Virus genome (UHGV): UHGV-0078062 | Source of the DNA: a virus | Length of the DNA: 22,357 nt | Reading direction: 5' to 3' (one strand) | Part shown: one piece after another, positions 73 to 2,878 of the stretch | Layout of the letters: each line of letters begins with the position of its first letter | How positions within the stretch are numbered: position 1 is the stretch's first letter | The notes under the pieces: generated by a model | What the model was told of the DNA's origin: nothing | The model's database searches: none | Seen by the model: only the letters and a program-made list of their open reading frames with translations | Translations under genes and position numbers: made by a program

Positions 73-276
73 ATGTACCGTATGGACAAAATCAGAGAAT
101 GGTTCAGTTACAGCTTCGGAGGACTGACTGCGATGGGTGGCATTCTCTCCCTGAATGACTGGGCTGTCATCATTGGTATTCTTTGTACTGTCGGCACATT
201 TGGCATCAACTGGTACTACAAGCGCAAAGAGCGCGAGGACAGATTGAATGGCAATGTCACCGGCACTACGAAATAG
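73..276 (+). CDS. Class II holin, phage-21 S-like pinholin with dual-start antiholin/holin motif
   Basis: 67-aa ORF beginning M-Y-R-M-D-K-I (ATG at 73 and 82), two hydrophobic segments ([28 protein letters not shown]), charged C-terminal tail (KRKEREDR); immediately upstream of and overlapping a SAR endolysin. Confidence 0.8.
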
Positions 277-751
277 CGTAATAGCGGCGATAAGTGGCGG
301 GGCTATTGCTATAGCATCTGTGTTAATCACTGGACCAAGTGGTAACGATGGTCTGGAAGGTGTCAGCTACATACCATACAAAGATATTGTTGGTGTATGG
401 ACTGTATGTCACGGACACACCGGAAAAGACATCGTGCTCGGTAAAATGTATACCGAAGCAGAATGCAAAGCCCTCCTGAATAAAGACCTTGCCACGGTCG
501 CCAGGCAAATTAACCCGCACATCAAAGTCGATATACCGGAAACAACGCGCGGCGCTCTTTATTCGTTCGTCTATAACGTGGGCGCAGGCAATTTCAGAAC
601 ATCGACGCTTCTTCGCAAGATCAACCAGGGCGATATCAATGGCGCATGTGATCAGCTACGTCGCTGGACATACGCTGGCGGTAAGCAATGGAAAGGGCTG
701 ATGACTCGTCGTGAGATTGAGCGTGAAGTCTGTTTGTGGGGGCAGCAATGA
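248..751 (+). CDS. SAR endolysin (GH24 / T4-lysozyme-like muramidase, phage 21 R-like)
   Basis: N-terminal Gly/Ala-rich weakly hydrophobic signal-anchor-release segment ([18 protein letters not shown]) followed by E-x8-D-x5-T catalytic triad ([16 protein letters not shown]); GAGGA SD 8 nt upstream of ATG 248; matches recalled phage 21 R21 layout. Confidence 0.85.
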
Positions 752-1215
752 GCAGAGTAACCGCGATTATCTCAGCTCTGGTTATCTGCATCATCGTCTG
801 TCTGTCATGGGCGGTTAATCATTACCGTGATAACGCCATCGCCTACAAAGAGCAGCGCGATAAAAAAGTCAGTGAGCTGAAGCAGGCGACTGCCACCATT
901 ACTGACATGCAGCAGCGCCAGCGTACTGCTGATGCACTCGATGCTAAATACACGAAGGAGTTAGCTGATGCGAAAGCTGAAAATGATGCTCTTCGGCGCA
1001 AGCTTGATAATGGTGGTCGGGTGCTCGTCAAAGGAAAATGCCCTGTGCCATCCTCAGCCGAAACCTCCAGCGCCTCCGGCATGGGCAATGATGCCACCGT
1101 CGAACTCTCTCCAGTTGCTGGACGAAACGTTCTCGGTATCCGGGACGGAATTATCCGCGACCAAACAGCACTGAAAACACTTCAGGAATATATCAGGACG
1201 CAATGCCTTCGATGA
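748..1215 (+). CDS. Rz: Rz-like inner-membrane spanin (i-spanin)
   Basis: ATG 748 overlaps endolysin stop (ATGA); N-terminal TM helix ([20 protein letters not shown]) then charged coiled-coil-like periplasmic region; the ORF-track start at 736 is a GTG upstream of the conserved MSRVTAII start. Confidence 0.8.
968..1174 (+). CDS. Rz1: Rz1-like outer-membrane lipoprotein spanin (o-spanin), embedded in the +1 frame of Rz
   Basis: Lipoprotein signal peptide [19 protein letters not shown] with lipobox, proline-rich mature part ([11 protein letters not shown]); strong SD AAGGAG 9 nt upstream of ATG 968; entirely inside Rz. Confidence 0.8.
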
Positions 1216-1390
1216 TAGCGATAATTTTACTCATCATCCTTCACATCTGGCTCTGTAGACAGGGTGGTGATCACTTCTGGAGTGAATCCAGATTAAACAT
1301 CTCATTGCTGATGCTTGATATTGAGCATCTGGCGCGCGGTAAGGGGCTGCGTTGAGATAAGAGCCAGTCATCACAAACACCAGGATTTAG

Positions 1391-1412
1391 CCTCGCCTTC
1401 GCGGGGTTTTTT
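1391..1412 (+). terminator. Rho-independent terminator-like hairpin after the lysis cassette
   Basis: CCTCGC / loop CTTC / GCGGGG stem (one G-U pair) at 1391-1406 followed by TTTTTT at 1407-1412. Confidence 0.5.
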
Positions 1413-1436
1413 ATTCCCAACTCCATAGGTAATTTT

Positions 1437-1916
1437 ATGACCCAGTATATTGGCGTAAAACTGATTAACGCCTTTCCGATGACGAGACAGGCATATAACG
1501 ATTTTCGTGGCTGGCAGCTTCCTGCCGGAGAAAACGGCGAGGACGAAGGCTATCTGGTTGAATATCTGGATGGCGGAAAACCTAACACCGATCGCTTTGA
1601 TGGCTACGTTAGCTGGAGTCCAAAAGAAGTATTCGAAAAGGCTTATCGTCCGGTATCAGGACTAAGTTTCGGCCTTGCCATGGAAGCGTTAAAACAGGGC
1701 AAAAGTTTGCAGCGGGCAGGATGGAATGGGAAAGACCAGTTTGTTTATCTCGTGAAAGGGGAAAAATTAGCGTCTGCGTTGGGTTATGGCTTTGGCGAAT
1801 ATGTTGGCGAGCCAACTTTCAATGACACGCTTGTATTGAAAAACTCACAGAACCGCCTTGCTACATGGGTTCCATCCATTGGCGACCTGATGGCTGAAGA
1901 CTGGCAAATCATTTAA
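1437..1916 (+). CDS. Hypothetical accessory protein with DUF2829-like (Tad2-like sponge) C-terminal domain and a degenerate N-terminal copy
   Basis: 159-aa ORF; C-terminal half has ALKQGK-x4-R-x-GWNGK...FVYLV...W-x-PS...DLMAEDWQI, a pattern I recall for DUF2829; N-terminal half shows a weaker parallel (RGW...GYLVEY...SWSPKEVFEKAY). Family assignment from memory, not from a search. Confidence 0.65.
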   Translation: MTQYIGVKLINAFPMTRQAYNDFRGWQLPAGENGEDEGYLVEYLDGGKPNTDRFDGYVSWSPKEVFEKAYRPVSGLSFGLAMEALKQGKSLQRAGWNGKDQFVYLVKGEKLASALGYGFGEYVGEPTFNDTLVLKNSQNRLATWVPSIGDLMAEDWQII

Positions 1917-1925
1917 CCATGTAGG

Positions 1926-1961
1926 CATTACAAAGCCTATCTACGGGTGGGCTTGATAATG
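1926..1961 (+). repeat. Copy A of a ~40-nt imperfect intergenic repeat (ATTACAAAGCC...GGGCTTGATAATG) containing a stem-loop and ending in an ATG
   Basis: Shares ATTACAAA-GCC...TAC...GGCTT-GATAATG with copy B at 2534-2573; internal stem AAGCC/GGCTT; terminal ATG (1959) opens a 9-codon mini-ORF (MKPELISGH). Confidence 0.5.
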
Positions 1962-2151
1962 AAACCGGAGTTAATTTCTGGTCACTAATTAACGGCAGTA
2001 CAGCGAAACAACCCAAGCCAGTAAGTGGGGAAATAACACTGGCAGCCACTGAAAGATGAACCTCCTGCCTTATGGCAAAAAAAGATTCTTTGTGGTGGCG
2101 GACTGATGGAAAGACATCCTAATCAAGCAACCACTCCACAGGGTCATAATT

Positions 2152-2532
2152 ATGAACGACCAGCAAATCGAAAAAGAAATCGTTGAGAAAGGCAAAACCG
2201 CTCCGAGAATCACTCCGCAGCACATCGAAGACGTGATTAAAAGCGAGCATTACTTTACTGCTTATGATGGACGTAATGGTGCCATTTCCAGCAACGAATA
2301 TTGTGGCAGGGAAAAACCAGAAGAAGGCGATCGTGATTTATCACCATTGAAGTTGCTCACTTTCTGCGTACTGGTGCTGAAGAATGGCTTCACCGTCACC
2401 GGAGAGAGTGCCTGTGCAAGCCCGGAAAACTTTGATGCAGAAATTGGTCGGAAGATTGCCCGGCAGAATGCTGTAAACAAAATCTGGATGCTCGAAGGTT
2501 ACTTGCTGAAGCAGAAGCTAAGCGAACAGTAG
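2152..2532 (+). CDS. Hypothetical phage accessory protein (possibly N4 gp49 / Sf6 gene 66 family)
   Basis: 126-aa ORF in the lysis-to-terminase slot; motif LTFCVLVLKNGFTVTGESACASPENF...KIW.LEGY resembles what I recall of that family, but the assignment is tentative. Confidence 0.6.
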   Translation: MNDQQIEKEIVEKGKTAPRITPQHIEDVIKSEHYFTAYDGRNGAISSNEYCGREKPEEGDRDLSPLKLLTFCVLVLKNGFTVTGESACASPENFDAEIGRKIARQNAVNKIWMLEGYLLKQKLSEQ

Positions 2533-2533
2533 T

Positions 2534-2573
2534 TATTACAAAAGCCATTCCTTACTGAGTGGCTTTGATAATG
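2534..2573 (+). repeat. Copy B of the ~40-nt imperfect intergenic repeat (TATTACAAAAGCC...TGGCTTTGATAATG)
   Basis: Stem AAAGCCA/TGGCTTT with 12-nt loop, compensatory relative to copy A; terminal ATG (2571) opens a 9-codon mini-ORF (MAYTLHGIT) that runs into the hairpin GGGATA-N10-TATCCC (2589-2610) plus TTTT. Confidence 0.5.
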
Positions 2574-2635
2574 GCTTATACCCTACACGGGATAACTTAA
2601 CTGATATCCCTTTTAACGGATAAACGGAGCCAACA

Positions 2636-2878
2636 ATGGCAGAGATTATTCCCATGACTGAAGAACAGAAATTCCAGTTAGAGATTTACAAACTGGTCAT
2701 GAACCAGAACGCAGCCGCGGAGGAAGCATTTCAATTCATTGGCACTGACGAACTGAAGCTTGAGCTATTCAAAATTCACTTCCAGTCAGGCGGCGCTAAT
2801 TCAGATATCACGACCCGCACTATCGAAGCGGTGCGTAAATCGAAGGAAGCGTTAGACCTGTTCACTACCGGAGCATAA
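2636..2878 (+). CDS. Hypothetical small helical protein, apparently translationally coupled to the terminase small subunit
   Basis: 80-aa ORF, GGAG SD about 10 nt upstream; stop TAA 2876-2878 is 2 nt before the terS ATG at 2881; no recognisable family. Confidence 0.5.
   Translation: MAEIIPMTEEQKFQLEIYKLVMNQNAAAEEAFQFIGTDELKLELFKIHFQSGGANSDITTRTIEAVRKSKEALDLFTTGA

Follow-up and report, generated by a model that had tools for sequence, protein, structure and literature searches.

The window analysed here, UHGV-0078062 (22,357 nucleotides, nt), is the late region of a P22/Sf6-like (Lederbergvirus) prophage. Between its lysis and terminase genes lie two short hairpins, H1 and H2, that belong to a widespread family of 33-40-nt intercistronic hairpins of temperate Enterobacterales phages and lie precisely at joints of swapped gene cassettes. 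An initial annotation made from the sequence of the window had pointed to a structured, repeated element at these sites; comparison with other phages supports this and shows that the element is conserved. With regard to function we favour, with confidence that is about evenly balanced, a composite model in which the hairpin would punctuate the late mRNA between cistrons and its conserved sequence would also serve as a crossover point.

Including the closing pair, H1 reads C-ATTACAAAGCCTATCTACGGGTGGGCTTGATAAT-G and H2 reads T-ATTACAAAAGCCATTCCTTACTGAGTGGCTTTGATAAT-G. H1 folds into a foot C-AUUA/UAAU-G, a CA/GA internal loop, an upper stem of 9 base pairs (bp) with two U.G pairs (AAGCCUAUC/GGUGGGCUU) and the loop UACG. 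The foot of H2, U-AUUA/UAAU-G, can be extended to positions 2531-2576 and is followed by a CA/GA internal loop, a 10-bp upper stem with one U.G pair (AAAGCCAUUC/GAGUGGCUUU) and a loop of 6 nt. The initial annotation had located both stem-loops correctly (1926-1961 and 2534-2573) and had underestimated their extent: the ATTA and TAAT ends are paired as well, and instead of a short stem flanked by conserved sequence, each copy is thus one hairpin interrupted by a 2x2 internal loop. Shuffles of the window gave an expectation of 0.00 chance occurrences for the combined hairpin pattern. A covariance model built solely from the hairpins of other phages matched only these two sites in the window (44.9 bits, E 3.5e-7; 27.3 bits, E 1.3e-3), and an architecture scan for any 5-bp foot with a CA/GA loop and a stem of at least 7 bp returned H1 and H2 only, both on the + strand, with 0.07 matches expected per shuffled window. 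A third copy, for which a search had been suggested, was thus found in the window by neither method. Both hairpins also fold as + strand RNA (H1, -18.1 kcal/mol, z -4.2; H2, -20.4 kcal/mol, z -5.6). The corresponding - strand folds (-10.2 and -12.7 kcal/mol) are about 8 kcal/mol worse because the + strand relies on G.U pairs.

Members of the family consist of a closing C-G or U.G pair, a 4-bp A/U-rich foot, a 2x2 CA/GA loop, an upper stem of 8-10 bp that is free in sequence, and a loop of 3-6 nt; closing pair, foot and internal loop form the invariant core. Such hairpins were found in P22, Sf6, HK620, HK97-like, Stx2, Mu-like and T7-like temperate phages and in Enterobacterales prophages, as well as in siphophages of Erwinia, Cronobacter and Klebsiella, and a genome scan located members in Serratia, Yersinia, Enterobacter, Raoultella and Mangrovibacter. 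Homologues of H1 are present in Sf6, HK620, Emek, mEpX1 and 50 or more IMG/VR loci. The 3' end of H2 is fixed at 65 nt ahead of the DUF2560 start in some 75-80 IMG/VR loci that share the DUF2560 gene. H2 itself occurs as two alleles (A and B), ATTACAAAAGCCATTCC...GAGTGGCTTTGATAATG versus ATTGCAGAG(G/A)CCATTCAATGAGTGGTCTCGACAATG, distinguished by compensatory changes that affect foot and upper stem alike.

The window and the whole Sf6 genome, where the covariance model matched only the two homologous sites, contain two copies each, and the late-region segment of P22 that was examined (NC_002371) contains one (40312-40347). One locus (L155) has three family hairpins within 430 nt (586-620, 893-928, 980-1015), arranged around a DUF2560 homologue and an 'empty' interval. 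In the same lysis-to-terminase region (586-1083) the third hairpin is directly followed by an Rfam int-alpA RNA (RF02996, 44.9 bits), and an HNH endonuclease gene adjoins the terminase genes of this phage. None of the hairpins, whether in the window or at six further family loci, is matched by Rfam, and this int-alpA RNA is the only Rfam match nearby. Full-text literature searches with the sequences of the hairpins and of the non-coding block behind H1 returned chance matches only, and neither searches on stem-loops of P22-like late operons nor the genome papers of phages epsilon34 and L yielded a description of the hairpin. The family is thus apparently undescribed.

Covariation had initially been deduced from the two copies in the window, a comparison that is weak taken alone; over the wider family the evidence is strong. 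Members recovered by pattern search share the frame ATTA-CA-(9-10 bp)-loop-(9-10 bp)-GA-TAAT-G and have very dissimilar stems; loose pattern searches of viral contigs, which mostly gave chance matches, were filtered by fold. Among the 56 distinct members 99.1% of the stem cells pair (slid controls, 36-55%); the pairing percentage of the members is inflated because patterns, fold filters and covariance model all favour pairing and because many loci are close relatives. Ten of the 14 pairs change on both sides, with 110 compensatory cells. None of 500 shuffles reached the observed values for cells paired, compensatory cells, pair types or covariation, and three of 500 reached the count of pairs changed on both sides. 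Conserved pairing in related phages, on which the initial annotation had made its proposal depend, therefore extends across a large family.

The double-sided changes are less affected by the bias of collection, and so is the comparison of orthologous sites, which does without the pairing-biased assembly of the wider set. Erwinia, Cronobacter and Klebsiella siphophages (L203, 3231-3263; L330-L333) have a hairpin at one orthologous site, with the gene for the major tail protein on one side and a DUF6246 gene on the other. At this site the foot covaries (AUUA/UAAU, AUUU/AAAU, AAAA/UUUU), and the closing C-G pair and the CA/GA loop are fixed. Its AAAA/UUUU foot makes the copy of the Klebsiella phage look like a terminator. 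An orthologous site lacking the hairpin was found neither around the L125 nor around the L203 context; the search at L203 yielded instead the orthologous hairpins with the covarying foot.

The hairpins are strictly oriented with respect to genes. An architecture scan of 615 kb of related loci gave 99 matches on the gene strand versus two weak ones on the opposite strand, the latter equalling the background rate in 1.6 Mb of unrelated sequence. The strand of the flanking genes is also that of the hairpin in unrelated phage types; examples are sites preceding a Mu GemA gene and a Terminase_2 small subunit gene, a site after a Rha gene, and a temperate phage with a T7-like structural module. The 56-member set contains 88 G.U pairs versus seven other non-pairs. 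Of 86 distinct contexts, about half have a stop codon 1-10 nt ahead of the hairpin start; in the rest a non-coding block or an intrinsic terminator precedes it. Immediately ahead of the foot, 68 of 80 contexts have C and 12 have T, the other upstream bases being variable. Genes following the hairpin in the wider family carry a Shine-Dalgarno sequence and ATG of their own, at a distance of 19-26 nt.

The tight spacing after stop codons and the proximity of a downstream start in many members would suit a translational operator or coupling device, in which the hairpin is melted by the terminating ribosome or bound by a phage protein, e.g. the product of the DUF2560 gene, which is often its neighbour, and thereby controls initiation downstream. 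The invariant internal loop would suggest a specific binder, and hairpins lie on both sides of DUF2560 homologues in three loci (L155, L161 and L194). We nevertheless consider this model quite unlikely. The hairpin does not include the downstream Shine-Dalgarno sequence, about 190 non-coding nt follow H1, and several copies are preceded by terminators or non-coding blocks instead of open reading frames (ORFs). Moreover, as judged from the adjacent genes, family members stand beside unrelated genes in Mu-like, T7-like and siphophage contexts, and DUF2560 is without any relative of known structure or function.

The alternative offered in the initial annotation, a repeated module-boundary element, fits the comparative data on junctions very well. 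Homology between phages breaks at the hairpin edges, and the BLAST matches of many phages start exactly at window position 1926. Hairpins of the H1 type combine 13 left neighbours with seven right neighbours in 21 combinations, homology beginning at the base before the foot. The left neighbours of H2 allele A are of at least six kinds, comprising the gp66 gene, a further small gene and several terminator-ended cassettes, and allele B is always preceded by a conserved non-coding block. In two loci (L030 and L064) a hairpin of the H1 type occupies the H2 slot, with the 3' foot as the exact point of joining. The cassette composed of a terminator and the Tad2-like gene has at its left joint a vestigial 5' foot, CATCACAAA (1369-1377); aligned at this foot, Sf6 continues from CATTACAAA with GCCTATC and two other loci (L032 and L073) with TACCAGG, the latter two having the 5' foot duplicated around an inserted terminator segment. 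Finally, an identical hairpin of 35-36 nt with both flanks unrelated was seen in 58 pairs of contexts. The hairpins thus flank variable accessory genes and coincide with junctions of insertion, deletion and replacement, as do the PeSL motifs of phage T4, and they resemble the boundary sequences (bsq) of lambdoid phages in being short sequences conserved between phages where the flanking homology changes.

These junctions raise the question of whether the element might function in DNA only. An extruded single-stranded or cruciform hairpin could be a site of recombination or mobility whose transcript has no role, either as a passive 'linker' retained for promoting cassette exchange or as a miniature palindrome that a recombinase or an HUH-type nuclease would mobilise in trans. 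Homology junctions at both hairpin edges and at the end of the 5' foot, as well as identical hairpins between unrelated flanks, speak for this reading, the main rival of the model that we favour. The three hairpins of L155 with an 'empty' interval between two of them are also in line with it, single-stranded DNA hairpins tolerate G.T pairs, and the paired ends, unpaired central loop and variable stem loosely resemble integron attC sites. By contrast, the orientation follows the flanking genes in related loci and also in unrelated phage types, the copy number is low (1-3 per genome), and copies within a genome are deeply diverged yet compensated, which is unlike recent transposition. Neither a recombinase gene associated with the hairpin nor, beyond the closing pair, a duplication of the target site was seen. 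The foot at the tail-gene site has changed in sequence and kept its structure; sequence microhomology can therefore not be the selected feature there. Taken together, we regard an element acting in DNA only as unlikely. Very unlikely, in our view, is that the hairpin is the recognition site of a dedicated trans-acting nuclease, recombinase or RNA-binding protein that actively moves or exchanges cassettes. If it were, temperate phage genomes would harbour a system akin to integrons or miniature mobile elements, and the occurrence of identical hairpins in wholly unrelated flanks would be accounted for.

In the composite model that we favour, the hairpin would be transcribed as part of the Q-antiterminated late operon mRNA and would be maintained by selection on its sense-strand fold, and would set gene cassettes apart as a kind of mRNA 'punctuation'. 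Its invariant parts, internal loop and foot, would be recognised by a factor that the hosts have in common; given that the carrier phages share few genes, this reader may be general to Enterobacterales. The intercistronic hairpins of T7 suggest, by analogy, that the most likely activity would be processing of the RNase III type or a block to 3' exonucleases, either of which would uncouple the stability and folding of neighbouring cistrons; for RNase III specifically our confidence is rather low. At the same time, the 35-40 nt of conserved sequence at each cassette joint may offer a place for crossover, as PeSL motifs do, and the Tad2-like gene, the gp49/66 gene and other accessory genes would consequently be exchanged as hairpin-bounded units.

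Several points weigh against this model, in addition to the inflated pairing percentages. The role assigned to the RNA is deduced from sequence comparison. With 14-17 bp plus the 2x2 loop, the helix is short for a typical RNase III site (roughly at least 20 bp). A single-stranded DNA hairpin read by a DNA enzyme would likewise keep G.T pairs and structural covariation, and identical hairpins in unrelated flanks could equally mean that the hairpin is mobile. An RNase E motif (RN|WUU) at the 5' foot was considered and rejected; the purine at -2 is not enriched (35 of 80 contexts).

The initial annotation had further noted that each hairpin ends in an ATG opening a 9-codon ORF, MKPELISGH after H1 and MAYTLHGIT after H2, and that each ORF runs into another inverted repeat, 1970-1993 and 2589-2610 plus TTTT, respectively. 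Both ORFs and both repeats are present as stated. The leader-peptide attenuator that they evoked, in which translation of the 9-codon ORF would control a downstream terminator hairpin, appears most improbable and is largely refuted by the sequence comparison. What speaks for it, apart from the two ORFs, is that the stop codon of the H2 ORF falls within the loop of GGGAUA...UAUCCC-UUUU and that the 3' arm contains a purine-rich, Shine-Dalgarno-like GAGUGG or GGGUGG. However, a conserved short ORF, as an attenuator would have, is not seen: the ORF opened by the ATG of H1 has 3, 9, 13, 21, 25, 30 or 60 codons in relatives, and it is because of this variation in length that a leader peptide was rejected. 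The G of the terminal ATG is structural, as in all 80 contexts its partner is the base just ahead of the foot, and MKPELISGH is an incidental consequence of the UAAU-G foot. MAYTLHGIT shows one common synonymous and several rare non-synonymous changes, and the ORF is lost in P22 and in one further locus (L009); its conservation is inseparable from the nucleotide conservation of the DUF2560 leader.

The inverted repeats fare similarly. That at 1970-1993 is absent from three downstream variants (D0, D1 and D5), the minimum-energy fold pairs otherwise, and the repeat is probably due to chance. That after H2 is part of the almost invariant DUF2560 leader and is absent in P22 and L009; the hairpin it forms (2589-2614) is weak and went unreported in the terminator scan, and it varies too little for covariation to be assessed. 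Only the hairpins appear in the minimum-energy and centroid folds of positions 2530-2640, alternative pairings not having been the subject of a dedicated search. In addition, there is no U-tract behind the main stem, and late transcription in lambdoid phages is Q-antiterminated, which is established biology.

Two other types of element were considered and rejected. The hairpins are not intrinsic terminators: the tail GAUAAUG has no U-tract, and the terminator scan detected the stem at 1389-1408 but neither hairpin. The AAA/UUU at the base of the stem is replaced by GCA/UGC in many members, and a 3' foot AAAU occurs at the tail-gene site. A promoter reading of GATAAT lacks a -35 partner at 16-18 nt, the motif is GACAAT in allele B, and the scan revealed no promoter-like site at or beside either hairpin. 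P22 orf25 (NC_002371, 40312-40406; 2813-2907 in L329) is annotated to start at an ATG in the hairpin loop of P22 and extends across the 3' arm; it is probably spurious and not a real gene.

The features of the window around the hairpins are compiled in Table 1.

Table 1. Coordinates of hairpins, genes and neighbouring elements in UHGV-0078062
Feature	Position	Strand	Remarks
Holin gene	73-276		
Lysozyme gene	248-751		
Rz gene	736-1215		
Small gene 65 homologue	1203-1355		
Vestigial hairpin 5' foot	1369-1377	+	Joint of the terminator-plus-Tad2 cassette with the sequence downstream of the gene 65 homologue
Canonical intrinsic terminator, 8-bp stem (1389-1408) and T-run	1389-1414	+	Heads the Tad2-like cassette; terminator scan
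Accessory cassette, Tad2-like gene (PF11195)	1437-1916	+	Stop codon 9 nt ahead of the closing C of H1 (1926)
Hairpin H1	1926-1961	+	Pattern, covariance model, folding, architecture scan
Mini-ORF MKPELISGH after H1	1959-1988	+	
Inverted repeat GTTAATT-N10-AATTAAC	1970-1993	none	
Conserved non-coding block	1990-2115	+	In 78 loci
Accessory cassette, N4 gp49 / Sf6 gp66 family (PF13876)	2152-2532	+	Stop codon 1 nt ahead of the closing T of H2 (2534)
Hairpin H2	2534-2573	+	Pattern, covariance model, folding, architecture scan
Mini-ORF MAYTLHGIT after H2	2571-2600	+	
Weak terminator-like hairpin, GGGAUA-N10-UAUCCC and UUUU	2589-2614	+	Within the conserved 62-nt DUF2560 leader
DUF2560 gene (P22 orf80 / Sf6 gene 67)	2636-2878	+	First conserved gene 3' of H2

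The records closest to the window are phages Huey, IME10, Sf6 and HK620 and many further P22-like phages; parts of this stretch are also common to HK97-like and Stx2 phages. Downstream of the DUF2560 gene follow the genes for the small and large terminase subunits and then the portal gene. The two hairpin-bounded cassettes, i.e., the Tad2-like gene (anti-Thoeris family) and the gp49/66 gene, are both called 'anti-CRISPR' in the automated annotation of phage Huey; the gap between lysis and terminase genes therefore looks like a hotspot of accessory or anti-defence genes.

The conserved block that separates H1 from the gp49/66 gene (about 125 nt) occurs in related loci that include P22, Sf6 and HK620. 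It is not coding, because it varies by 1-nt indels in a G-run and an A-run; neither covariation on either strand nor an Rfam match was detected for it. Its right edge (...GGAAAGACATC) is the fixed point that anchors inserted cassettes, the gp49/66 gene among them, on their left. Elsewhere in the window, a palindrome (CCCCTCAATGAAGGGG) at 51-66, just 5' of the holin start codon, resembles in reversed form the apex of some family hairpins (model E 0.66), probably by chance. An 18-nt inverted repeat with 89% complementarity links the Tad2-like gene (1734-1751) with the DUF2560 gene (2681-2698) over a distance of 929 nt and is possibly a chance occurrence, too.

It has long been asked how mosaic phage genomes swap modules so precisely at gene boundaries. 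The idea of conserved 'linker' sequences is decades old and has found thin support. With the hairpin, the easily manipulated model phages P22, Sf6 and HK620 offer a compact, covariation-defined element located where the cassettes of an accessory-gene hotspot join. Simple mutants would make the ideas of RNA punctuation and of crossover at the hairpin testable. With regard to annotation, mini-ORFs including P22 orf25 are probably by-products of the hairpin, and the hairpin itself provides a search handle for cassette boundaries in prophages.

Structured boundary elements of phages are already known, namely PeSLs, bsq and REP-like stabilisers, and the family shares features with each of them as well as with RNase III sites and attC. 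Like REP/BIME elements, which stabilise upstream mRNA, and like the hairpins in which morons end, its members are palindromes just past stop codons in transcribed intergenic regions. Unlike REP/BIME they are phage-borne, low in copy number and without the conserved GTAG-palindrome organisation, and unlike moron terminators they are not intrinsic terminators, true terminators being found next to them (1389-1414 and in several loci). The polycistronic mRNAs of T7 contain intercistronic RNase III hairpins with an internal loop that are read by the host enzyme and leave a protective 3' hairpin. The family would be comparable as an intercistronic hairpin with an internal loop in a long phage mRNA; it differs in the lower helix, which has 5-8 bp as opposed to the two helices of about 10 bp each in T7 sites.

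With integron attC sites the hairpin has in common that it is an imperfect palindrome following a promoterless cassette, with conserved ends, a variable middle, an unpaired centre and a structure that is kept over sequence. It is, however, much shorter than attC (57-141 bp), lacks the R''/R' core (RYYYAAC...GTTRRRY), has the ends (C)ATTACA...GATAAT(G) and is oriented in accordance with transcription. No integron integrase was seen in the window, most of whose ORFs were not screened, nor is one annotated in the Sf6 record, where the phage integrase (gene 16) is the sole tyrosine recombinase.

The bsq of lambdoid phages, reportedly described by Clark et al. in 2001 for HK620, and the 'linker' idea of modular evolution, which is said to go back to Susskind and Botstein, come close with respect to position. 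Bsq are likewise short conserved sequences at the boundaries of mosaic modules and were proposed to guide recombination; in contrast to the hairpin, they are not defined by covarying structure. In the Sf6 record bsq2 to bsq7 are annotated elsewhere, and the hairpin sites (37835-37870 and 38499-38538) are unannotated.

For T4-type phages, PeSL (promoter-early stem-loop) cassettes have been described, in which short conserved regulatory motifs with a stem-loop flank small non-essential genes of variable regions and provide, through their conservation, recombination sites for modular shuffling (Arbiol et al. 2010, PMC2839356; Comeau et al. 2014, PMC4122927). A PeSL combines a strong sigma-70 promoter with a stem-loop that acts as an effective terminator (PMC2839356). 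Both types are short conserved stem-loops at variable accessory genes and recombination junctions; unlike a PeSL, the hairpin described here comes without promoter and U-tract, is defined by its CA/GA loop and A/U foot, and belongs to temperate phages of enterobacterial hosts.

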